NCBI RefSeq assembly: GCF_007830295.1 | Contig: NZ_VLKC01000002.1 | Coordinates: 3,889,546-3,913,545 of the forward strand | Length of the DNA stretch: 24,000 nt | Direction: 5' to 3' | Source of the DNA: Sporomusa sp. KB1 | GTDB lineage: Bacteria; Bacillota; Negativicutes; Sporomusales; Sporomusaceae | Shown here: in pieces, positions 4,616-24,000 of the stretch | How the letters are laid out: each line of letters opens with the position of its first letter | Numbering within the stretch: the stretch's first letter is position 1 | Notes under the pieces: generated by a model | Seen by the model: the letters and a program-made list of their open reading frames with translations, nothing else | What the model was told of the DNA's origin: nothing | Databases searched by the model: none | Program-made: the position numbers and the translations under genes

Positions 4616-6001
4616 TTGTTAGATAATATAAAAAGAATTCATTTTGTTGGTATTGGTGGCTCAGGTATGAGCTCTATTGCGAAGGTACTGCTGGAAATGG
4701 GGTATACTGTGTCTGGTTCTGATGCTCAGGAATCAGCCGTTACCACAAAACTTGCTCAAGCTGGCGCGAGAGTGCATATTAGCCACAGTTACGAAAATAT
4801 TGGTGATACGCAAGCTGTAGTTGTTTCTACTGCAATCCCTGAGACCAATCCGGAGGTAAAGGCTGCCAGGGACAAGGAAATACCTGTATATCACCGGGCC
4901 GATGTGCTGGCATTTTTAATGTCTAAACAGCGGGGAATAGCTGTAGCTGGTGCGCATGGCAAGACTACAACGACGTCAATGATTGCTCTGATGTTGGAAC
5001 AGGCAGGTACAGATCCGACCATAGTCATTGGTGGTGAGCTGGAATCAATAGGCGGCAGCGCAAAACTTGGTCACGGTTCCTATTTGGTGGCAGAAGCCGA
5101 TGAAAGTGATGGCTCCTTTTTGAAACTTTCACCACAGATTGCCATTGTAACCAACATTGAAAACGATCATATGGATTACTACAAAACTATGGATAATATA
5201 TTGCGTACCTTTGATAAATTCTTGCATCAGCTTGCGCCGGCAGAGGGGATAGCTATTTTATGTTTTGATAATTCCTATGTAAGAAATATAGCTTCTAAGC
5301 TTGAAAGACGCTATATATCTTATGCGCTTGAGCATGAGGCAGATGTTGTCGCCCGCAATATAAAATCCGACGGTCCAGTTTCAACCTTCGATGTATACCA
5401 TCAAGGCAATCTTTTAGGCACAGCTAAAATCTGTGTACCAGGAATCCATAATGTATCTAATGCGTTAGCTGCGGTTGCTGTAGGTATTTATGCCGGGTTA
5501 AGTTTTGCACAAATTGTCGAAGGCCTTGGCCTATTTCAGGGAGCAAAACGCCGGTTTCAGACAAAAGGACGGGTTAATGGCGTATGGGTAGTGGATGATT
5601 ACGCCCATCATCCTACTGAAATTAGCACTACCTTACTCGGTGCACGCCAAACAGAACCTAAGCGGCTAATTTGTGTTTTTCAACCGCACCGGTATACCCG
5701 TACGAATTTTCTGCGAAAAGAGTTTGGTGCGGCATTTTCGCAAGCTGATTTGTTAATTCTTACCGATATTTATTCAGCTGGTGAACAGCCTATTCCTGGC
5801 GTCAGCGGGGAAACGATTAAGAATGAAATTGAACAGCAAACCAATCAGCGGGTAACTTATGTACCAGATAAAGGTAAAATTGCGCGTTATTTGAATGAAA
5901 TTGTTGAACCAGGAGATTTAGTAATGACTATGGGGGCCGGCAATATTTACCAAGTGGGTGAAGAGTTGGTAGAAAAACTCACGCAAGCGAATAATGTGTA
6001 G
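4616..6001 (+). CDS. murC: UDP-N-acetylmuramate--L-alanine ligase MurC
   Basis: TTG start with RBS AGGGGAG. Motifs HFVGIGGSGMS, GAHGKTTTTSM and DDYAHHPTEI are typical of MurC. Confidence 0.95.
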   Translation: MLDNIKRIHFVGIGGSGMSSIAKVLLEMGYTVSGSDAQESAVTTKLAQAGARVHISHSYENIGDTQAVVVSTAIPETNPEVKAARDKEIPVYHRADVLAFLMSKQRGIAVAGAHGKTTTTSMIALMLEQAGTDPTIVIGGELESIGGSAKLGHGSYLVAEADESDGSFLKLSPQIAIVTNIENDHMDYYKTMDNILRTFDKFLHQLAPAEGIAILCFDNSYVRNIASKLERRYISYALEHEADVVARNIKSDGPVSTFDVYHQGNLLGTAKICVPGIHNVSNALAAVAVGIYAGLSFAQIVEGLGLFQGAKRRFQTKGRVNGVWVVDDYAHHPTEISTTLLGARQTEPKRLICVFQPHRYTRTNFLRKEFGAAFSQADLLILTDIYSAGEQPIPGVSGETIKNEIEQQTNQRVTYVPDKGKIARYLNEIVEPGDLVMTMGAGNIYQVGEELVEKLTQANNV

Positions 6002-15402: not shown

Positions 15403-16011
15403 ATGGAGAGAAGTTTACCTTTGTGGAGTAAGCGAATGTTAATAATTCTAGTAGTTTGTTTTATTGCTGGTGGCTGGAGTGTACTTCTTTATCAGCAAAA
15501 ACACGGGGTACCAGTGACACCCAATAGCAGTGATTATGTTAGATTGCATATTTTGGCTAATAGCGATAGCGTACAAGACCAACAGCTTAAACTAAAGGTT
15601 CGCGATGCAGTAATTGCCTATCTAACCCCATATGTCAAAGATGTGACTGATGCCCAAGCAGCTAAAAACATTATAGCTAACCGCCAAGAGGAACTTGTTC
15701 TGGTAGCCAAAAACACGCTAGCCGAAAACGGCGTTGATTATCCTGTAGCTATCCAAATCGGTAGTTTTGAGTTTCCGGTGCGTTCCTACGGCAGCTTAGT
15801 GTTGCCTGCGGGAGAGTATCAGGCTGTTCGCATTCTCCTGGGAGAGGCTGCTGGGCAAAATTGGTGGTGCGTATTATTTCCACCCCTATGTTTTATTGAC
15901 GGTACTAACACGACCTTAGCCCCAGTTACTTCTTCAAAAGAATATACTCAGCAGGAAGATGGCGATAGACCTTTAAAAATTTGCTGGAAGCTGGCTGAGA
16001 TTTTTAATTAA
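15403..16011 (+). CDS. spoIIR: Stage II sporulation protein R (SpoIIR), the forespore signal that activates SpoIIGA
   Basis: Conserved SpoIIR blocks VRLHILANSDSVQDQQLKLKVRDAV and NWWCVLFPPLCF, with an N-terminal signal/TM segment. I prefer the ATG at 15403 (RBS GGGAGG 7 nt upstream) to the ORF-track ATG at 15379. Confidence 0.9.
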   Translation: MERSLPLWSKRMLIILVVCFIAGGWSVLLYQQKHGVPVTPNSSDYVRLHILANSDSVQDQQLKLKVRDAVIAYLTPYVKDVTDAQAAKNIIANRQEELVLVAKNTLAENGVDYPVAIQIGSFEFPVRSYGSLVLPAGEYQAVRILLGEAAGQNWWCVLFPPLCFIDGTNTTLAPVTSSKEYTQQEDGDRPLKICWKLAEIFN

Positions 16012-16034
16012 TAAATTGTGTAATGGGTAAAAAA

Positions 16035-16074
16035 ACAGCCTCAGCTCTGCGAAATGCAGAGTTGAGACTGTTTT
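16035..16074. terminator. Bidirectional terminator between the convergent spoIIR and 556-aa genes
   Basis: 16-bp stem ACAGCCTCAGCTCTGC / GCAGAGTTGAGACTGT (two G-U pairs), loop GAAAT. An A run (16029-16034) flanks the 5' side and TTTT the 3' side. Confidence 0.8.
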
Positions 16075-16151
16075 AATATGTAGACTAGAAAGTCGGACTT
16101 ATAAAGCTCTTTTTGTGCTTGTATTCATTGCGTGAAACTTTACTGAGATTG

Positions 16152-17822
16152 TTATACTTCGACAACGCGCCTGATATTGCTGTGTGCTACAACGCTTTCT
16201 TCTACTGAATAAGTAGGAATTGCAGCACTGGCCATCTGTTGGATGGTAAGGGGAATGTTGGTTTTGGACAAAAACACTAACCGTTTGTCGTAATAGCGAA
16301 TTAGTTTGATCATCTTATAAAAACAGTCATGGCTGAATTTGCAGCGAACATTGGCAAAAATAATATCAGCATGGATGATAAGCGCTTCATCAAAGCCGTT
16401 TGCATCGCCGGAGAGATAAACAAAATTAGGTAGCTGGGTCTTTAACTTGGTTTGCCAATTTTCAGCACCGCCGATAACCAAGGCGTGAATGTTGCTTAAT
16501 GTGCTTAATGCTGCCTCGATATTGTAGTGTTGATTAGATGTTGCTAAATTTATAATATTATTAGAGTTTTCTATGTCTTTACTTTGTCTTCGGTGATTTT
16601 CCGCTTGCGTAAGCTTAGTTTGAAGTAGCTCAGTTTCTTTGCTTAAGGCATTCACCACGAACTTTTGTTTGAGAACCAAGGCGTTAAGCTCTTCTTCTTT
16701 TTGAGCCAGCAAATCGGTTTTGGCTGCCAAATCTGCACTCATCCTGCGAACTTCTATTTCGTAGGCTCGAAGTTGTTTTTTGAGATTATCCATTTCGGCA
16801 GATAGAAAAGGATTGTTTTGTTCAAAATAATATTTCCTCGTTTTTTTATACTCACGTATGAATTCGAGTAAACTTAAGCCGAACATTACAAACTCGGCAC
16901 ATTTTGATTCCAGATCCTCGTGGCTTTGCGTATGATTGGATCGGAATAATTCTGAGGTCATCTTTATAATATAGAGGCGACAAAGTAGCTCAACATCTCG
17001 TTCTTTAATCTTTGTCAAAATTTTTGGTGATGCCAAGGATAATCCTGTTGATGATGACAAATACGCGGTGCAGTGAGCCATTCCTTCCCAGAAATGGTCG
17101 CCGTTCCAGGGTTCAAGATAATTATAAAATACCTTTTGATATATCGCATTTTTAAGTTGACGGGCCATTTTTTTTATTGCTGGTTTATTCAGCCTGTTTT
17201 TTAATTGTTGAAAATCGCTGGTGTTATCAAGCTTGCTGGCAAGTGTTTGCACAACGAATAAAGTCTCAGGTTCTGGTATGATTGCTTTTTTGCCTAAAAC
17301 ACAGGTAATAAACATGGCGAATTTTAGGGAGGCATGAGGCGGTAAATCAATAGCTGGATACATTGCAATGAAATATTGAAGATATTGTATTGCGGCGCCA
17401 GTAAGAAGATTGTGGTATTGAACGTCTTTGTCGGATTCGGCATAATACTCTGGCTGAGCGGCTTTTGATAAATCAATTGTTTCGGCATTTTTAATATAGC
17501 CATACAGATTGCTCCAGCGTTTTGTCAGAATGCGTATTACCTGTTCGAATAAGGGAGAACAAGGGCCATCTTCCATAGCCACAAGCACCATGCCTAAGTA
17601 TTTTAAGGCATAAATTTGTCGATCAATGCCGCTGATAGTGAACAAAGGATGATTAGCATAAGAAGAATGAGAGGCTGCAGTCTGGTAACGAGTTTTATCG
17701 ATTTCATAAAGCAAGTCTATTTCTTTGTATGCTGATGATGTATCGGCAGCGAGCTGGACAAAAAGAGGGAGCGTATCAACCGGGATATTGTTGGCTACTA
17801 ATATGAAATCCGAAATCTTCAT
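16152..17822 (-). CDS. Hypothetical 556-aa protein: novel helical N-terminal region, central coiled coil, DUF2325-like C-terminal domain
   Basis: Long uninterrupted ORF with RBS GGATGGTGA upstream. Residues ~341-412 are heptad-rich (EMDNLKKQLRAYEIEVRR...ELLQTKLTQAENH). Residues ~446-530 (ALVIGGAENW...HADIIFANVRCKFSHDCFYKMIKL...LVFLSKTN) match my memory of the DUF2325 pattern (GG ... aD-hh ... sH ... k). No TM segment or signal peptide. Confidence 0.7.
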   Translation of the reverse strand: MKISDFILVANNIPVDTLPLFVQLAADTSSAYKEIDLLYEIDKTRYQTAASHSSYANHPLFTISGIDRQIYALKYLGMVLVAMEDGPCSPLFEQVIRILTKRWSNLYGYIKNAETIDLSKAAQPEYYAESDKDVQYHNLLTGAAIQYLQYFIAMYPAIDLPPHASLKFAMFITCVLGKKAIIPEPETLFVVQTLASKLDNTSDFQQLKNRLNKPAIKKMARQLKNAIYQKVFYNYLEPWNGDHFWEGMAHCTAYLSSSTGLSLASPKILTKIKERDVELLCRLYIIKMTSELFRSNHTQSHEDLESKCAEFVMFGLSLLEFIREYKKTRKYYFEQNNPFLSAEMDNLKKQLRAYEIEVRRMSADLAAKTDLLAQKEEELNALVLKQKFVVNALSKETELLQTKLTQAENHRRQSKDIENSNNIINLATSNQHYNIEAALSTLSNIHALVIGGAENWQTKLKTQLPNFVYLSGDANGFDEALIIHADIIFANVRCKFSHDCFYKMIKLIRYYDKRLVFLSKTNIPLTIQQMASAAIPTYSVEESVVAHSNIRRVVEV

Positions 17823-17870
17823 GCGGTATCACCATCCTTTTTGTATTAAAAATAAAACGATCTATTCTCT

Positions 17871-18230
17871 TTACACTACTTTTTTGGTAATACATTCGAC
17901 ACTTTCTATTTGGTAAGACGCGGCAATAGTCGTGCTTCGTTCGCCTTTGGCTGTCTGTATTGCCGCTTTGACTGCAAGCAGAGACTCCGTAATATTTTTT
18001 AGGTTGTTTGTTAACGTTACAAGGATATTAACATAGGTATCAAATGTATAGTCGTTCTTAGACAAGGTAGCTTCTTGAATGGCTTTATGGGTATCTACAA
18101 GGAGTTCTTGAAAGGCATGTTCAGAGTATTGTAAGTCAGTTAGTGTATAGCAACCGGGTTCATTGTCGGTTAGTAACATAATCTTCCCATTGGTTAAAAC
18201 ATCACTGTGATCATTGATTCGTGAATACAT
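17871..18230 (-). CDS. Hypothetical 119-aa protein, first gene of the operon with the 556-aa gene
   Basis: ORF with a strong RBS (AGGGAGGAAAAATT-ATG). It lies 48 nt upstream of the 556-aa gene on the same strand. No recognisable motif, TM segment or signal peptide. Confidence 0.6.
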   Translation of the reverse strand: MYSRINDHSDVLTNGKIMLLTDNEPGCYTLTDLQYSEHAFQELLVDTHKAIQEATLSKNDYTFDTYVNILVTLTNNLKNITESLLAVKAAIQTAKGERSTTIAASYQIESVECITKKVV

Positions 18231-18281
18231 AATTTTTCCTCCCTAGTAACATTTTATTAGGCTAACTAAAGCGACAAGCTT

Positions 18282-18326
18282 AAACGAAAATATGCCAAGC
18301 CTATCCAGAACGGAAAGGGCTTGGCA
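18282..18326 (-). terminator. Leader terminator (attenuator) inside the 5' UTR of the 119-aa gene
   Basis: Read on the minus strand, UGCCAAGCC-N16-GGCUUGGCA forms a 9-bp stem followed by AUAUUUUCGUUU. It sits about 60 nt upstream of the ATG at 18230. Confidence 0.7.
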
Positions 18327-18392
18327 ATAAATTCAAGCGAACGTAATAAAAGAACATAAAACAAGTGTAAAACTTTGCACTGCTTGAAATAT

Positions 18393-18487
18393 TGCTCCTT
18401 TCCAAAAGGGAGATATAGCCGTTTTCAGCTATACCGATCGGCCGGATACCATGCCACGAAAGGATTAGGTAAATCGGCTAAGGAGCA
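18393..18487 (-). promoter_or_regulatory. Candidate riboswitch aptamer; class unproven, some resemblance to the Moco/Tuco RNA motif
   Basis: On the minus strand an 8-bp closing helix, UGCUCCUU (18487-18480) / AAGGAGCA (18400-18393), encloses about 80 nt. Internal hairpins are GCCG..UACC / GGUA..CGGC (18478-18441) and UAUAGC-UGAAAACG-GCUAUA (18433-18414). The 3' strand also pairs with the terminator's 5' arm. Confidence 0.5.
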
Positions 18488-18567
18488 GACTATCTGATTA
18501 TGAAACTTTAACAAAGAGGTATTCGATAACGAAAACTAACATAAACAAACATGAATAATTAATTACT

Positions 18568-18596
18568 ATTATATTGTTTGGCGGTGTATAAATCAA
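18568..18596 (-). promoter_or_regulatory. Sigma-A-type promoter for the riboswitch-like leader and the 119/556-aa operon
   Basis: On the minus strand: TTGATT (18596-18591), a 17-nt spacer, then TATAAT (18573-18568). Confidence 0.6.
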
Positions 18597-18699
18597 TATG
18601 GTTAGTATATGTTGGTTAGAAAAATTTTTTGTGAAGTTTAGATTAGAATTGACGTTCTCCTTTTTAAAAAGGGGTTGCATCGATTCGTCAATTAAACTC

Positions 18700-18729
18700 T
18701 TGCCAATATAAACAAACAAATACTATAAT
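18700..18729 (+). promoter_or_regulatory. Sigma-A-type promoter for the WtpA-like gene, with the shared motif in its spacer
   Basis: TTGCCA (18700-18705), an 18-nt spacer, then TATAAT (18724-18729). The spacer begins with AATATAAACAAACA (18705-18718). Confidence 0.55.
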
Positions 18730-18753
18730 AAAACCCAAAAGGGGGTATGGATA

Positions 18754-19743
18754 ATGAATCGTAATTTAATGAAACTAATGGGTCTTTTTCTCTGCGTAGT
18801 ACTCATTGGACTGGGGCAACAAAGCAGTTTTGCCGAGGAGAGCCCAAACCACCCAATTACGGAGGTTATTGTCTTTCATGCTGGCAGTTTAAGCGGACCA
18901 TTCCAGAAAGCGGCCGAAGCTTATGAAAAATCTCATCCAGATATCAAAATCACTTTAGAAGGAAGTGGCAGCCGGGAAGCCGCCCGGAAAGTAACGGAAC
19001 TGAAGAGACCATGTGACGTGGTTGCTTCTGCTGACTATGAAACTATTGATAATTTAATGATGCCTGAATATGCAAAGTTTAATATATTTTTCGCCCGTAA
19101 TAAAACAGTTGTAGCCTTTACCGACAAAAGTAAGTATGCTAATGAGATTACCAGTGATAATTGGTATGATATTTTATCAAGGCCAGATGTGCAGTATGGT
19201 CATACTGATCCGAATTTGGATCCTGGCGGCTACCGGGCAGTTCTGACATTGCAGTTAGCCGAAAAATATTATCATAAACAGGGCTTGTATCAAGCGCTGG
19301 TAAATAATTTTCATGAGTCTAACACTGTCAATGATGGAAAAAGTATCAAAGAAATGCTGAATTCAGGTCGGTTGGATTACTTCTTCTTTTATGAATCGTC
19401 AGCCAAACAAGGCGGCTATCACTATATTACCTTGCCGGTTGAACTCGATTTTTCTTCCTTGGATTATGCGAACTATTACAAGCAAGCAACACTGTCGCTT
19501 AATGGCAAAAAAACAGGCAGCACTGAACAAGTTTACGGACAACCAATAATTTATGGCCTTACTCTGGTGAATAACGCCCCACATTCCAAGGAAGCGCTGC
19601 AATTCATACACTTTCTTCTGACAGATGGACAAAAATATTTAAATGATGCAGGTTTTATTTCTATGAATCCGTTAGTTCGCACCAGGGAATTGCCTTACAT
19701 CCCGGCAGAATTAAAAGATTTAGTAAAGCCGTTCAAACAATAA
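18754..19743 (+). CDS. Periplasmic tungstate/molybdate-binding protein, WtpA/ModA superfamily (orphan; no adjacent permease or ATPase)
   Basis: RBS AAGGGGG. Sec signal peptide (MNRNLMKLMGLFLCVVLIGLGQQSSFA). VFHAGSL...GSGS...VVASADY parallels the ModA blocks VFAAASL...SSG...FISAD. The HTDPNLDPGGYR block resembles the WtpA-type oxyanion-binding motif, recalled from memory. Confidence 0.82.
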   Translation: MNRNLMKLMGLFLCVVLIGLGQQSSFAEESPNHPITEVIVFHAGSLSGPFQKAAEAYEKSHPDIKITLEGSGSREAARKVTELKRPCDVVASADYETIDNLMMPEYAKFNIFFARNKTVVAFTDKSKYANEITSDNWYDILSRPDVQYGHTDPNLDPGGYRAVLTLQLAEKYYHKQGLYQALVNNFHESNTVNDGKSIKEMLNSGRLDYFFFYESSAKQGGYHYITLPVELDFSSLDYANYYKQATLSLNGKKTGSTEQVYGQPIIYGLTLVNNAPHSKEALQFIHFLLTDGQKYLNDAGFISMNPLVRTRELPYIPAELKDLVKPFKQ

Positions 19744-19839
19744 GCAGTGATGCCGTATGGTCTATAATCACAAACATACATAAAGTCTGTATTCCTGGAT
19801 ATTTGTGATATCGATTTTCCAAAATCGGTTTGGATAATG

Positions 19840-19868
19840 AAAAAACGCTCCCCTTTCAAAGGGGAGCG
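19840..19868 (-). terminator. Terminator for the minus-strand hxlR-like gene
   Basis: CGCTCCCC-TTTCAAA-GGGGAGCG hairpin (19846-19868). The A6 run on its plus-strand 5' side becomes a U run after the hairpin on the minus strand. Confidence 0.7.
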
Positions 19869-19900
19869 AATCAATACCCGAAATACAGTGTTCTATGCTC

Positions 19901-19928
19901 GCCTAGACGTATGTCTAGGCATTTTTTT
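19901..19928 (+). terminator. Terminator for the WtpA-like gene
   Basis: GCCTAGAC-GTAT-GTCTAGGC is a perfect 8-bp stem followed by ATTTTTTT. Confidence 0.75.
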
Positions 19929-19952
19929 GTCTATGGAACTATGTATTTTTTC

Positions 19953-20420
19953 TTAGCCGTTACAGGTGCAAGCGTCACCGCAAGTACAACTGTCGCCGCA
20001 TGAACAACCGTCAGTATTTGCAATCATGCTATCATTTTTTGAAATACTTACTCCCGCTGCGGAAAGCTCTTCTTGTTTCTTCAATTTTTTATTGTAGTTG
20101 TTTATCCAGCCAAACACATCGTTCAAAATCGGTATAAAACTTTGTCCGATATCTGTTAATGAGTATTCGACTTTTGGCGGTACTTCTTTGTATATTTCTC
20201 TAAATACTATTCCGTCCCGTTCAAGTTCCCGTAACTGTTGTGTAAGTATTCCTTGTGAAATATCGGGTATTTGTTTTTGAAGTTCACTAAACCTTCTCGT
20301 TCCCTCGCTTAAACGCCAAAGAATTGTGAATTTCCATTTACCTGTGACTAACCTTTGGGCAACTGTTAGTGTTGCATTAGTCACTGGACAAAGACCTCTA
20401 AGGTTTTGTGCTTTGGTCAT
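19953..20420 (-). CDS. HxlR-family (DUF24) winged-helix transcriptional regulator with a C-terminal metallothionein-like Cys-rich tail
   Basis: Core [27 protein letters not shown]...[31 protein letters not shown].....[11 protein letters not shown] is the HxlR signature. An extra ~45 aa ends in [19 protein letters not shown], with six Cys arranged as three CxC pairs. Confidence 0.85.
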
Positions 20421-20517
20421 TTCAAATTGCTTCCTTTCTCAATGGTACTATAAATAGTAGTATGTCATATAAAAGTGCCTACTTGTATTTTTATTTATTA
20501 TATTATACCATTTTAGC

Positions 20518-20571
20518 AAATATAAACAAACATAGACAATAATTATAAGTCGTTTATGTTTGTTTATATTT
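20518..20571. promoter_or_regulatory. Perfect 17-bp inverted repeat; candidate operator in the divergent hxlR-like / HMA promoter region
   Basis: AAATATAAACAAACATA (20518-20534), a 20-nt spacer, then TATGTTTGTTTATATTT (20555-20571), an exact reverse complement. The left arm overlaps the -35 region of a minus-strand TGgTATAAT extended -10 (20510-20502). The right arm overlaps the -35 region of a plus-strand TATAGT (20581-20586). Confidence 0.65.
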
Positions 20572-20611
20572 GTAGATATTTATAGTTTGGCACAGGGAGG
20601 AAGTGAAGCTA

Positions 20612-20821
20612 ATGACTCAAACCAATCAAATTATCCTGAGAATTGAAGGTATGTCATGCAGTATGTGCAAAGGTAAAGTGGAAAAAGCACTTAAAAGTAT
20701 TTCAGGAGTAATAAACGTAAGTGTTGATTTGGAAACAAAGGAAGCCATTATTGGTGGCTTGGCTAATCCTGCAGCGCTTGTTAAAGCTGTTGAAGAAATT
20801 GGATTTAAAGTTAAAAACTAA
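20612..20821 (+). CDS. Heavy-metal-associated (HMA) domain protein, CopZ-like metallochaperone
   Basis: 69 aa with a ferredoxin-like HMA pattern and metal-binding loop GMSCSMC (MxCxxC). No signal peptide. I prefer the ATG at 20612 (RBS AGGGAGG 11 nt upstream) to the GTG at 20603. Confidence 0.85.
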   Translation: MTQTNQIILRIEGMSCSMCKGKVEKALKSISGVINVSVDLETKEAIIGGLANPAALVKAVEEIGFKVKN

Positions 20822-20861
20822 TATGCTTCACCACTTAGCACTATTCAAGAGGAGGGGGAAA

Positions 20862-23138
20862 ATGGCGAAAAACTTAACATGGAAACCATTTTGCAGTGTT
20901 ACACTTGCTATTGCCATGTTTCTATATGGAGCAGGTATTGCCGGGGCGGAAAATGCAGTGTCGCAATCAGACAGCACTCAGGTGTCCGAAGGTGATAAAC
21001 AGCAAAAACAGGATCAGGCAGCTGATAAGCAAGAACAGCACGAAAATAGTGATAGTTCGATTGCGGCGACTTCAACTGCGGCCAATGTTCCATTTACTGA
21101 GGTGGAGATTACTGCGGTGGAGGTTACTGCGGACAAGCAGAATAAACTGGCTATTGGCCAGCAACCCAACGCCGAAGGGATAAATAATTATGTAGTTACG
21201 AAAAGTTCTACCGGCAGTAAATCAGACGTTGCAAATAAGGATTTGCCGCAGTCGATTACGGTGGTCGGCCAAAAAATCATGAAGGAGCAAAATAATAAAA
21301 CAGTCGCCGATGCATTAACTAATGTGGCGGGGGTAACGGTAGCCCAAGCAGTTCCTAATTATTGGTACAACACAAGTTTTAATATCCGAGGTTTTGGTAA
21401 TGGTTTTTTGTCTGACAATGTATTTGTTAATGGGTTATGGGATCCGTGTATTTCAATGTCGGGATGGGTGGGAAATCTTGACCGTATCGAGGTATTAAAA
21501 GGTCCGGCCTCTGTACTGTACGGAAATGGTACGCCTGGAGGTTCAATCAACTATGTAACAAAAAAACCGTTGTCTGAACAGGCATTTACCTTGGGCACGG
21601 AGTTCGGCTCATGGGGATCCAAATCGACTGATATTGATATGTCCATTCCGCTAACTGATGATAAAAAATGGCTGTCCCGGACTATTATTCAGAATGCTGA
21701 TAATCATTCTTTTCAAAAGGACGTTAAATTCAAACGTTTCGACGGCAGCGTAATTGTGCAAGGCCAACCCCGGCAAGATACTGTGTACACTTTTGAAGTA
21801 CAGTTTCATGATCACGATGGTCCAACTGTTGGATTGCTGCCACTTACCGGTACAATAAATTCCCCCTATAATCTAGTTCCTTACGATGGGAATTATTATA
21901 ATCCAAATATAAAATTACATTATATAGGGCGCAGTATTTCGGCACAAATCGATCACCAGTTTAATAGTATTTGGTCCATCCGTTCGGCCTTCCGATATAG
22001 CAATGAAACCACAAATTTCTATTCGCAAGGAGGGTCGACTCTGAATCTCGATAATCTTACAGTCAATCAAGTTTGGCAGCATAGACTGATGCGCACCAGC
22101 GTTTATGCGTGGGATACGGCAGCAAATGCCAAATTTACTGCTTGGGGGCTTAAACACGATTTGACATTTGGTTTTGACTGGGCCCAATTTGATCAAAAAA
22201 TCCCCTATTATTATCGGGGCAATTTACCCAGCGTTTCGTTGTACAATCCTATTTTCACCAGCTCATTACCAACGAGGATTATGAATCCAATGAATAACTA
22301 TCATTCTTGGAGCAATCGATATGGGAGCTACATATCGGACATAATGGAACTTTCGCCCAAATTTAAGGTTGCTACAGGGGCAAGCTTTACCACTTTGGAT
22401 GGTGTCAGCAGCCATGATTCTGGCAAAGATTGGCGGGTCGGGGCGACCTATGAATTAACTCCAGGAGTTACCTTATTTACCGGCTACTCCACATCCTACG
22501 AACCACAAGGCTCTAAGCTTAGTGGTACTAAAACGATTTACTTTGAACCTGAAACCGGTAATCAGATCGAGGGCGGTTTGAAGGTAGATATAAGTAATCG
22601 CGCAAGTGTTACGTTAGCAAATTACCGGATCAATCGTGAAGATATGGTCTACGCTATTCCCGGAACGAACCCGCAAGAATATGAACAAATTGGCAAGCAA
22701 ACCAGCAAAGGGTTCGAACTTGATGCTAGCTACGTACTTCGTCCAGGCTGGAATCTGCTGGTCGCTTATTCTCATTGTGACGCTCGCGTAGTAAAAGACG
22801 CTACCTATAGTTCAGGCAGCGTGCTTCCCAATGTGCCGCTTAACTCCTTTAAACTTTGGAGTACATACGAATTTCAAGAAGGGCCTTGTAAAGGGCTGGG
22901 TTTTGGCGGCGGTTTGACTCGTGTCGGCAGCCGCGCAGTCGATTATGATAATAGCTTAGGTTGGATGGATGGCTATACTACGATTGACGCCGAAATACAT
23001 TACAAAATCAAAGATTGGCGTTACTCCCTCAACCTATATAATTTGACTAATGAGAAGTATTGGGCGTTAGGCAGTTCTAGTGGTGTTTACGCGGGAACAC
23101 CTAGAAGTTATACTTTGCGCGTAGAAAAGTCATTTTAA
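20862..23138 (+). CDS. TonB-dependent outer-membrane receptor (siderophore/metallophore-receptor type)
   Basis: RBS GAGGAGGGGG then ATG at 20862. Signal peptide (...AIAMFLYGAGIAGA-ENA). Plug-domain motifs TKSSTGSKSDVANKDLPQSITVV, NVAGVTV, IRGF, IEVLKGPASVLYG and PGGSINYVTKKP. A beta-barrel-like repeat region follows, with the terminal aromatic ...YTLRVEKSF. The ORF-track start at 20721 overlaps the HMA gene and lacks an RBS. Confidence 0.9.
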   Translation: MAKNLTWKPFCSVTLAIAMFLYGAGIAGAENAVSQSDSTQVSEGDKQQKQDQAADKQEQHENSDSSIAATSTAANVPFTEVEITAVEVTADKQNKLAIGQQPNAEGINNYVVTKSSTGSKSDVANKDLPQSITVVGQKIMKEQNNKTVADALTNVAGVTVAQAVPNYWYNTSFNIRGFGNGFLSDNVFVNGLWDPCISMSGWVGNLDRIEVLKGPASVLYGNGTPGGSINYVTKKPLSEQAFTLGTEFGSWGSKSTDIDMSIPLTDDKKWLSRTIIQNADNHSFQKDVKFKRFDGSVIVQGQPRQDTVYTFEVQFHDHDGPTVGLLPLTGTINSPYNLVPYDGNYYNPNIKLHYIGRSISAQIDHQFNSIWSIRSAFRYSNETTNFYSQGGSTLNLDNLTVNQVWQHRLMRTSVYAWDTAANAKFTAWGLKHDLTFGFDWAQFDQKIPYYYRGNLPSVSLYNPIFTSSLPTRIMNPMNNYHSWSNRYGSYISDIMELSPKFKVATGASFTTLDGVSSHDSGKDWRVGATYELTPGVTLFTGYSTSYEPQGSKLSGTKTIYFEPETGNQIEGGLKVDISNRASVTLANYRINREDMVYAIPGTNPQEYEQIGKQTSKGFELDASYVLRPGWNLLVAYSHCDARVVKDATYSSGSVLPNVPLNSFKLWSTYEFQEGPCKGLGFGGGLTRVGSRAVDYDNSLGWMDGYTTIDAEIHYKIKDWRYSLNLYNLTNEKYWALGSSSGVYAGTPRSYTLRVEKSF
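21102..21131 (+). repeat. Tandem 15-bp duplication inside the receptor gene, encoding VEITA-VEVTA
   Basis: GTGGAGATTACTGCG (21102-21116) is followed directly by GTGGAGGTTACTGCG (21117-21131), with one mismatch. Confidence 0.8.
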
Positions 23139-23178: not shown

Positions 23179-24000
23179 GTGACCGCTCAATCAAAAACAT
23201 TTTATCAAGAATTGTGGCACATCGTCCGTCCCTTTTGGCGGTCGAGGGAAGGCAGGATAGCAGCGGCAATGCTGTTAGGAGTGCTAATCCTGATTATTTT
23301 TCGTCTCTATGTAAGTGTTCTGATAAATGAATGGCAAAAACTTTTCTTTAATGCCATTCATTTATTGAATGCCGCTGAGTGTATCCACCAGCTTTTCCGA
23401 TTTGCGGGCTTGTCGCTGCTGTTTTTGCCGTTGCTTGGCTGTCAGAAATATTTACGGGGGCTTGTGCAAATTCGCTGGCGGCAATGGTTATCGGAACGCT
23501 ATGCTGAGAAACTGCTGAAAAACCGGAATTATTACCGTTTACAGTATGCATCAGGCGATACTGATAATCTTGATCAGCGTATTGCTGAGGATTTGCGGAT
23601 TTTTCCCGTGGAGACCATCAACATGATTTTTGGTTTTATTGATGCGATGGGATCACTTGCGGCATTTTCTGTTATATTGTGGAATTCGCCGGGATCACCG
23701 GAGGTAGCCGGCCTGGAAATTACTGGCTTTCTATTTTGGCTGGCTTTATTCTTTTCGTTAGCCGGTACATGGGTCAATCACCTTATGGGGAAAATTCTCA
23801 GTGTTTTTAACCGGGAACAACAGAAATATGAAGCTAATTATCGGTTTTCCCTAGTCCGGCTCCGAGAAAATGCTGAGGCTATTGCCGCATACGGTGGCGA
23901 ATGCCGGGAAATGGAAGCCCTCGCTGATCGGTTTGGTAGTATCGCCGGGGTATGGCAGAATATTTTGCGCCGGAATAGGATACTGGACTGGTTTTTCAGT
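23179..24000 (+). CDS. YddA-like ABC transporter (ABC_membrane_2 / SbmA-BacA-type TMD fused to an ATPase), 3'-truncated by the window edge
   Basis: Not in the ORF track, because it starts at a GTG and has no stop within the window. GTG at 23179 has RBS GAAGGAG 10 nt upstream, and the frame stays open for 274 codons to base 24000. Blocks LINEWQKLFFNAI, IRWRQWLSERY, NYYRLQY and DNLDQRIAEDLRIF match E. coli YddA (WLNDWNNDFFNAL, IRWREWLTDYY, NYYFTQIY, DNPDQRIAEDILL), recalled from memory. Confidence 0.82.
   Translation, partial: MTAQSKTFYQELWHIVRPFWRSREGRIAAAMLLGVLILIIFRLYVSVLINEWQKLFFNAIHLLNAAECIHQLFRFAGLSLLFLPLLGCQKYLRGLVQIRWRQWLSERYAEKLLKNRNYYRLQYASGDTDNLDQRIAEDLRIFPVETINMIFGFIDAMGSLAAFSVILWNSPGSPEVAGLEITGFLFWLALFFSLAGTWVNHLMGKILSVFNREQQKYEANYRFSLVRLRENAEAIAAYGGECREMEALADRFGSIAGVWQNILRRNRILDWFFS

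Follow-up and report, generated by a model that had tools for sequence, protein, structure and literature searches.

A P3-lacking Moco/Tuco riboswitch leader, most likely a ligand-OFF attenuator, ahead of two uncharacterised genes in Sporomusa

What might a two-gene operon, whose products have no significant match in Pfam or NCBIfam, have to do with a long and highly structured leader RNA? This question is raised by a locus on the minus strand (18282-18596) of a 24-kb stretch of the Sporomusa sp. KB1 genome, referred to in its full length as the window. An earlier note had described a promoter, an untranslated leader and the layout of a ligand-OFF transcriptional riboswitch at this site, with a resemblance to the RNA motif associated with the molybdenum cofactor (Moco) or the tungsten cofactor (Tuco). 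The note had also proposed an Rfam search, folding, and a comparison of homologous leaders for covariation, and we followed it up along these lines. Our analysis assigns the leader to the Rfam family RF01055 as a member lacking the P3 stem, and most likely a kinetic ligand-OFF transcription attenuator, a reading to which we attach a probability of roughly 0.8. The riboswitch class is already known; the regulon members are new.

Reading the minus strand directly, we found the promoter, the leader of about 330 nucleotides (nt), the closing helix, the terminator and the antiterminator complementarity each where the note had placed it. The sigma-70-type promoter (18568-18596) consists of a -35 hexamer, TTGATT, at 18596-18591 and, after a 17-nt spacer, a -10 hexamer, TATAAT, at 18573-18568, and scored 10 of 12 matches in a promoter scan. 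Both hexamers are kept in seven orthologous or paralogous leaders (alignment A8). Transcription is predicted to start around 18561, which leaves the ~330 nt untranslated up to the ATG at 18230. On the same strand, an open reading frame (ORF) of 73 amino acids (aa) at 18498-18719 overlaps the promoter and leader and is not called by the Joint Genome Institute (JGI); we rejected it as a gene.

The only Rfam match in the whole window was to RF01055, at 18497-18379 on the minus strand (52.6 bits, E = 3.6e-10, model positions 1-135), as compared to a curated gathering score of 36 bits, and the suspected resemblance to the Moco/Tuco motif is hereby substantiated. The motif is referenced to Weinberg 2007 and Regulski et al. 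2008. The alignment to the covariance model covers the full model except for P3, whose positions are deleted, leaving the helices P1, P2, P4 and P5 (18379-18497). That is, the stem between P2 and P4 by which the P3-containing, Moco-type subclass is recognized is absent, and P2 is joined straight to P4 by CCGGCC-GAU-CGG in 25 of 25 aptamers, none of which has a P3 stem. Given the deletion of the P3 positions, the aptamer files with the P3-lacking, Tuco-associated subclass.

P1 is formed by the 5′ strand UGCUCCUU (18487-18480) and the 3′ strand AAGGAGCA (18400-18393), and its outermost pair changes from G-C to A-U in three orthologues. Folding of the 231-nt leader gave z = -4.25 relative to dinucleotide shuffles, and the minimum free energy (MFE) structure contained exactly P1, P2, P4, P5 and the terminator, with P1 enclosing two hairpins and a short helix. 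The family is further characterized by a junction with 5′ CUCCGAGCC and 3′ CCUCCC...UGGAAAGGAG, and by a GNRA (GAAA) tetraloop on P4 that docks into a bulge receptor in P2. In the window aptamer, the conserved 3′ core CCUCCC...UGGAAAGGAG is intact, reading CUCCCUUUUGGAAAGGAG, and a receptor-like CCUAA...(C/U)AUGG is present in P2. The P4 loop (18431-18416) reads AAAA in the window and in the related loci L002 and L003, and GAAA in most orthologues; the receptor-like CCUAA/CAUGG of P2 is retained.

The aptamer recurs ahead of the same gene. Loci with homologues of the second regulated gene product, a 556-aa protein here called p556, were collected from one genome per species plus an exact-protein look-up. 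In 13 of the 14 loci from Sporomusaceae, an RF01055 aptamer at or above the gathering score lies upstream on the same strand, and this linkage extends to metagenome-assembled genomes (MAGs) with a protein only 41% identical. The orthologous leaders score 44-55 bits with RF01055. The 14th locus, L008 from Sporomusa aerivorans, has a diverged copy in the same place (5763-5881, plus strand), scoring 16 bits with the Rfam model and 48 bits with one specific to the clade. Although P2 of this copy is degraded, a strong terminator and a co-varying antiterminator are retained, and the copy may be a decaying or re-purposed switch.

Across 23 distinct aptamers, 97.5% of the base-pair cells were standard pairs, compared with 31-47% when the 3′ partners were slid, and eight pairs changed on both sides, which was reached by none of 500 shuffles; we take these figures as corroboration only, since the alignment is model-fitted and the sequences are related. 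An RNAalifold consensus reproduced the aptamer helices. As judged from the sequences, the main evidence for the class is the match above the curated threshold together with the conservation ahead of the same gene. Among the papers searched, none linked RF01055 to Sporomusa.

Downstream of the aptamer lies an intrinsic terminator (18282-18326), composed of a GC-rich 9-bp hairpin, UGCCAAGCC / GGCUUGGCA (18326-18318 / 18301-18293), and the tail UAUUUUCGUUU at 18292-18282. The hairpin (18326-18293) has a predicted energy of -18.6 kcal/mol, and was overlooked by a simple terminator scan because its loop is longer than the scan's 8-nt limit. The switching segment GGAAAGGAGCAAU (18403-18391) contains the 3′ strand of P1 (18400-18393), which it would provide in the ligand-bound state. 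It is also complementary to AUUGC-CAAGC-CCUUUCC (18328-18312), that is, to the segment AUUGCCAAGCCCUUUCC made up of the 5′ arm and loop of the terminator, with which it can form an antiterminator.

The antiterminator duplex of the window has an energy of -15.0 kcal/mol, a value matched by 7 of 1,000 shuffles of the terminator arm. In all 12 leaders compared, the aptamer is followed at 49-68 nt by a hairpin with a U-rich tail (-16 to -30 kcal/mol), and the antiterminator duplex is possible in each of them, with shuffles of equal energy numbering 0-34 per 1,000 in eleven leaders and 87 per 1,000 in L004. In L011, a two-base compensatory swap matches the aptamer sequence UGGAGCGG to the terminator sequence CCGCUCCA, the other leaders having UGGAAAGG with CCUUUCC (0 of 1,000 shuffles). 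Another co-varying version is found in L008 (1 of 1,000 shuffles). The mutually exclusive P1 and antiterminator pairings from which the ligand-OFF layout had been proposed are thus conserved and covarying in 12 leaders.

For the full-length RNA, the MFE structure is the aptamer plus the terminator, and the terminator stays the most stable structure even with P1 blocked. Full-length folding therefore cannot discriminate the two states, and we used nascent-transcript folding, with the RNA extending up to the terminator loop. Here, the MFE structure of the window leader, and of most orthologues, was the antiterminator, with P2 and P4 intact; its advantage over the P1 state was 2.6 kcal/mol in the window and 1.1-10.5 kcal/mol in the orthologues. 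With the antiterminator as the lowest-energy nascent fold, the default state would be ON and the ligand would turn it OFF. Read-through by default, with the ligand locking P1 for termination, is the standard kinetic design.

We propose that transcription would start near 18561 from the conserved sigma-70 promoter, and that the aptamer (18497-18379) would fold next. If no ligand is present, GGAAAGGAGCAAU (18403-18391) would capture the emerging 5′ arm of the terminator (18328-18312), and the antiterminator so formed would allow the polymerase to read through into the 119-aa and 556-aa genes. If the cofactor is bound, P1 would be locked, and the terminator hairpin (18326-18293) and U-tract would form and stop transcription before the genes. 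A ligand-OFF switch of this kind would have the operon expressed when the cofactor is scarce. Class membership, structure, conservation, the mutually exclusive pairings and their energetics are direct results of this analysis. The direction of regulation in vivo is most likely ligand-OFF, by analogy to Eubacterium limosum, with which it agrees (PMC11725836).

The first gene behind the leader (17871-18230, minus strand) encodes a 119-aa protein, p119, and is preceded by a strong ribosome-binding site (RBS), AGGGAGG, at 18244-18238. Together with the p556 gene, it forms a two-gene operon that ends convergently with spoIIR. p119 has no family match in Pfam, NCBIfam, PADLOC or PHROG, and only 13 homologue clusters, all Sporomusa-like. 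There are three p119 paralogues in the KB1 genome, of which P0040 stands alone immediately after an RF01055 aptamer of its own (60 bits). The third paralogue, P0045, of the KB1-like genome (L018 1795-2633, plus strand), follows a padR-family gene and has no aptamer, and members of the p119 family therefore sit under different regulators. Divergent homologues of ~87-99 aa occupy the same slot at L009, L010, L012, L014 and L054. The small gene is missing altogether from S. malonica, S. termitida, S. aerivorans and one MAG, where the aptamer abuts the large gene.

The second gene (16152-17822, minus strand) encodes p556, which consists of an N-terminal domain, a long coiled coil and a C-terminal Rossmann-like, DUF2325-like domain. 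In an AlphaFold2 model (predicted local distance difference test score, pLDDT, 68.8), the N-terminal domain (residues 1-125) is confidently predicted and leads via a helical middle region to a single helix of ~100 residues and a small alpha/beta Rossmann-like domain at the C-terminus. We found no significant fold match in the PDB, and no significant match in Pfam or NCBIfam. Neither of the two proteins falls into any family of the latter two databases, in line with the note's view that the regulated genes are not known molybdenum or tungsten (Mo/W) cofactor genes. In searching both, we rejected a NET2A match as coiled-coil noise, and likewise an identity as a defence system, PADLOC giving only weak coiled-coil noise for both proteins and their relatives.

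The 33 clusters of p556 homologues come solely from Sporomusaceae and Selenomonadales MAGs. When a profile built on the N-terminal 335 residues was run against 1.84 billion representatives, ~190 clusters came up, mostly of ~480-500 aa with the same three-part architecture and sub-threshold matches to DUF2325. p556 itself matched the phage protein family phrog_11092 in two stretches (E = 3.5e-24, 86.4 bits), and its wider relatives match PHROG 11092 over their full length, up to E = 1.7e-62. As for DUF2325 (PF10087, threshold 33.6 bits), the p556 of the window gave no match, 3 of 21 family members matched at E-values of at least 0.017, and 7 of 10 wider relatives matched at 17-28 bits, all sub-threshold; some family members are called 'DUF2325 domain-containing' in UniRef. 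The resemblance of the modelled C-terminal domain to DUF2325 is plausible, with membership unproven.

The wider relatives of p556 occur in the Clostridium phages phiCD211, phiCDIF1296T, c-st and D-1873, among genes for regulators, anti-restriction, CRISPR and transposases, and in Firmicute islands with integrases, Mu-type transposases, a Gabija-like OLD/UvrD pair, DndB/GmrSD and TnsA. No Moco aptamer was found at these phage and island relatives. The Sporomusaceae branch has a conserved set of H250-C251, C281 and C308 that is not obviously shared by the profile matches. Since the relatives reside in phages and islands and lack a Moco aptamer, this branch looks, by sequence comparison, like a mobile-element protein family brought under cofactor control. 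Of the phage genes, the relative in c-st (L102 5971-7461, CST013) is annotated as 'insertion sequence ISCbt2-a, truncated', and that in phiCD211 (L101 5989-7434) is followed by three small transcriptional regulators. The region from p556 to the hxlR-like gene (window 16001-21000) has a GC content of 0.36-0.39, compared to 0.41-0.45 in the adjacent dcw/sporulation cluster, and the riboswitch-p556 module differs in chromosomal context between Sporomusa species, with an rRNA operon nearby in S. malonica and mutS/mutL/hfq in S. termitida. Low GC and varying context suggest a relocated or acquired segment.

The window further contains the dcw cluster, spoIIGA-sigE-sigG-spoIIR and a TonB-dependent receptor; its proteins are 100% identical to those of Sporomusa sp. 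KB1, and its host is a spore-forming diderm Firmicute. Divergently transcribed from the riboswitch operon is the gene that the note had described as encoding a tungstate- or molybdate-binding protein. We identify it as wtpA (18754-19743, plus strand), encoding a tungstate-binding protein of 329 aa (TIGR03730, 306.9 bits versus a cutoff of 242.75); its product scored 330.3 bits with NF003196, just under the cutoff of 355. We rejected an action of the riboswitch on wtpA, which is on the opposite strand and has its own promoter 25 nt upstream of the ATG. WtpA adjoins the riboswitch module in the window, L002, L003 and L031, ModA/ModD in L004, L006, L007, L012 and L075, and Mop or CobW-like genes in L003, L005, L008, L010 and L015. 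Most p556 loci with usable flanks have one of these genes within a few kb. RF01055 is linked to Mo/W genes here by neighbourhood, not by cargo.

A second potential layer of control is an operator-like 14-mer, TGTTTGTTTATGTT, at 18538-18551 (minus strand), about +10 to +23 of the leader. Visible as a conserved block just past the -10 hexamer on the promoter alignment, this 14-mer (TGTTTGTTTATRTT) has four exact copies in the window, versus 0.08 expected, and none of 100 shuffles reached four. One copy (18705-18718, minus strand) falls into the spacer of the wtpA promoter (18700-18729). The other two form an inverted pair (20519-20532, minus strand, and 20557-20570, plus strand) between the hxlR-like gene (19953-20420, minus strand) and an HMA/TonB-receptor operon (from 20612, plus strand). 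The 14-mer also follows the riboswitch promoter in L002, L003, L004, L009, L015 and L031; copies in relatives include those at L012 11652-11665 (minus strand), L015 7605-7618, L004 5293-5306 and L009 5278-5291. The L012 copy is at the promoter of a modD-like-modA-modA-modB operon, divergent from the gene of an HTH_17 plus PBP_like (PF12727) protein.

Placement at promoters regardless of orientation, together with the inverted pair, makes a DNA operator more likely than an RNA element. By its positions, the 14-mer is probably the operator of a Mo/W-responsive repressor, candidates for which are the HTH_17 plus PBP_like protein and the HxlR-like protein with its Cys-rich tail. Such a putative repressor, bound just downstream of the -10 hexamer, would constitute a second control layer, suggesting dual control of the operon by repressor and riboswitch. 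The sharing of the 14-mer with the wtpA, hxlR-like, HMA/TonB-receptor and mod promoters further suggests a place for the operon in Mo/W homeostasis.

Within the window, wtpA is an orphan binding-protein gene. Beside it are genes for an HxlR-family regulator with a C-terminal Cys-rich tail, a 69-aa HMA protein, a TonB-dependent receptor, an SbmA/BacA-like ATP-binding cassette (ABC) protein and a DUF364 protein (19953-20420, minus strand; 20612-20821, 20721-23138 and 23269-24000, plus strand; L001 2124-7870). This cluster could serve outer-membrane uptake of a metal or metallophore, co-regulated via the 14-mer.

The aptamers of this regulon share one departure from the family. Junction J1/2 reads CUCC-UUA-GCC in 24 of 24 regulon aptamers, compared to the family consensus CUCC-GA-GCC, and the UUA variant is present in every aptamer preceding p119 or p556 genes (15 loci reached via proteins). 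The third P3-less aptamer of the KB1-like genome, which is located ahead of rex, has the canonical CUCCGAG and scores 71 bits. At this site (L016 2772-3032, minus strand, contig JAVKYP010000273.1; also L017), a ZMP/ZTP aptamer (RF01750, 50.9 bits) directly precedes the RF01055 aptamer (71.3 bits), placing tandem aptamers for two different ligands upstream of 42-aa and 69-aa ORFs and a gene for a Rex-like repressor. Of 78 pattern matches to the UUA variant in a metagenome scan, the covariance model recognized 9 as true aptamers, and 69 were chance occurrences. Six of the nine precede p119/p556 homologues, one a p119-like ORF next to mop, and two a gene for a LysR-type regulator of 329-333 aa (L032 8062-9351, minus strand; L049 10532-11753, plus strand, on two metagenomic contigs). 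The text of the 2008 alignment (176 members; 54 'CGAGC' strings) has no 'UCCUUAG', a weak test given the age of the alignment. The note's suggestion that the aptamer itself may be new is not supported in the sense of a new class, the match being to RF01055, and stands in a weaker form, as the CC-UUA-GCC junction of all regulon aptamers.

Which cofactor would be sensed? According to Regulski et al. 2008, 58 of 176 RNA members lack P3, and these track tungsten-cofactor organisms and genes, with Tuco markers in 17 of the 19 organisms carrying them (PMC2408646). Members with P3 are associated exclusively with Moco genes, and the P3-containing RNA of Escherichia coli responds to Moco, not to Tuco (PMC2408646). 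The E. limosum study likewise took the absence of P3 as a signature of Tuco (PMC11725836). S. ovata has six predicted genes for tungsten-dependent aldehyde oxidoreductases (W-AOR) and one tungsten-dependent formate dehydrogenase (W-FDH), responds to tungstate and is tungstate-limited in standard medium (PMC4973070). Since P3 is absent, S. ovata uses tungsten and the divergent neighbour in the window's own clade is WtpA, the ligand is most likely Tuco rather than Moco, by genomic correlation. A less probable reading keeps the class and the mechanism, and has the RNA respond to Moco or not discriminate between the two cofactors, the absence of P3 being a lineage trait and not a specificity determinant. 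It draws on ModA/ModD, rather than WtpA, as the adjacent transporter gene in about half of the related loci, on the operator motif that also fronts a mod operon, and on the correlative nature of the link between P3 and Tuco. What speaks for Tuco against it, besides the exclusive association of P3-containing members with Moco genes and the 17 of 19 P3-less carriers with Tuco markers (PMC2408646), is the WtpA neighbour in the window clade, the heavy tungsten use of S. ovata (PMC4973070) and the lack of P3 in all three aptamers seen in the KB1-like genome.

Several points count against a P3-lacking RF01055 attenuator that senses Tuco, and must be weighed with it. The junction deviates at a conserved position, where a G that is upper-case in the Rfam consensus line is replaced by U, with a 1-nt insertion; the P4 loop of the S. 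ovata clade is AAAA, not GAAA; and the U-tract of the terminator is interrupted (UAUUUUCGUUU). Because alignment A7 was built to fit the structure of the model, it is biased towards that structure, and the close relatedness of the sequences and an almost invariant core make for modest covariation. For every member of the class, binding of Moco or Tuco has been difficult to demonstrate directly, as the cofactors are unstable, too much so for routine in-line probing (PMC2408646), and the connection of a missing P3 with Tuco sensing is correlative, not demonstrated. Nothing in p119 or p556 themselves indicates a Mo/W function. The junction in particular could mean that the UUA aptamers are a subtype of altered specificity for a different pterin-related ligand (metal-free molybdopterin, MPT; cyclic pyranopterin monophosphate, cPMP; or a dinucleotide form), with p119, p556 and the LysR regulator as its own regulon. 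The presence of the variant in every aptamer ahead of p119 or p556 genes, the canonical rex aptamer in the KB1-like genome, the genes behind the nine metagenomic variants (p119/p556 homologues, the p119-like ORF or LysR genes) and the absence of 'UCCUUAG' from the 176-member alignment would fit such a subtype. We consider it unlikely, however: the rest of the core (CCUCCC...UGGAAAGGAG, the P2 receptor, P4) is unchanged, the score is well above the family threshold, the clade offers one canonical aptamer only for comparison, common descent of duplicated leader-gene modules may suffice as an explanation, and searching the text of an old alignment tests the point only weakly. Still further from our expectation, and in our view very improbable, is that the aptamer is a decaying relic, which would leave control of the operon to the promoter-proximal operator and a constitutive partial terminator alone. 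The degraded P2 of L008 with its 16 bits in Rfam, the lost GNRA loop of P4 in the S. ovata clade and the presence of an independent operator could be taken in this way, but aptamer core, terminator and antiterminator are kept across proteins only 41% identical, and neutral decay would not preserve the compensatory changes in helices and antiterminator. A P3-lacking RF01055 leader acting as a ligand-OFF attenuator remains our preferred reading.

Among known systems, the P3-lacking subclass of RF01055 shares with the Sporomusa leader the above-threshold match to the full model, the helices P1, P2, P4 and P5, the CCUCCC...UGGAAAGGAG core, the receptor-like sequence of P2, the lack of P3 and an association with tungstate/molybdate transport genes. 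The Sporomusa element differs from it in J1/2, which is CC-UUA-GCC and not CC-GA-GCC, in the AAAA P4 loop of the window clade, and in its cargo of two uncharacterised proteins instead of transport, pterin-biosynthesis or Mo/W-enzyme genes. The closest analogues are the P3-less RF01055 leaders of fetABC1 and focA in E. limosum, which combine a terminator hairpin with an overlapping antiterminator and control non-cofactor genes that are up-regulated under tungsten limitation, i.e., with OFF-switch behaviour (PNAS 2024, PMC11725836). P3-less aptamer, terminator/antiterminator platform and genes outside cofactor metabolism are common to both systems, whereas the phylum-level lineages (Negativicutes versus Eubacteriaceae) and the cargo (p119 and p556 versus an iron ABC transporter and a FocA-like channel) differ. 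The moaABCDE operon of E. coli, with promoter control by ModE and FNR in addition to a Moco riboswitch (PMC2408646), resembles the present case in the pairing of a promoter-level regulator, putative in Sporomusa, with a cofactor-sensing leader RNA on the same operon. In contrast, the E. coli aptamer is a P3-containing Moco sensor that controls translation through RBS sequestration, and the Sporomusa aptamer lacks P3 and has a terminator platform. On the protein side, p556 shares its N-terminal domain, coiled coil and DUF2325-like architecture with PHROG 11092 (~490 aa; phages phiCD211, c-st and D-1873 and Firmicute defence islands). The phage and island relatives have neither a Moco aptamer nor Mo/W neighbours, whereas the Sporomusaceae branch is longer (535-572 aa), has the H250-C251/C281/C308 set and always travels with the riboswitch.

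The presence of RF01055 is in itself no discovery, as standard Rfam-based annotation would flag the aptamer. The new content is the regulon, that is, p119, p556, the LysR regulator and the shared operator. An RNA that senses a cofactor can be relied on as a functional label, and the one found here tags the families of ~90-140-aa and 556-aa proteins as part of tungsten/molybdenum cofactor physiology. Going by their leader and neighbourhood, the regulated genes would be needed when the cofactor is scarce, and we infer a role in Mo/W homeostasis. They offer a first experimental handle on PHROG 11092 and on DUF2325-like domains, and p556 is a possible case of a mobile-element gene recruited into metal-cofactor homeostasis. 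Direct tests are possible for both the 14-mer operator motif and the junction variant. If the UUA aptamers do form a subclass of their own, sensing a pterin species other than that of the canonical aptamer in the same genome, its regulon would be a previously unrecognised cofactor-starvation response in tungsten-dependent Negativicutes, and the shared operator would wire this response to the mod/wtp transporters and the TonB-dependent uptake cluster. Sporomusa ovata is a leading catalyst of microbial electrosynthesis and its productivity is tungsten-limited, which is why new members of a tungsten regulon are of practical interest, as leads into the tungsten homeostasis of an industrially relevant acetogen.

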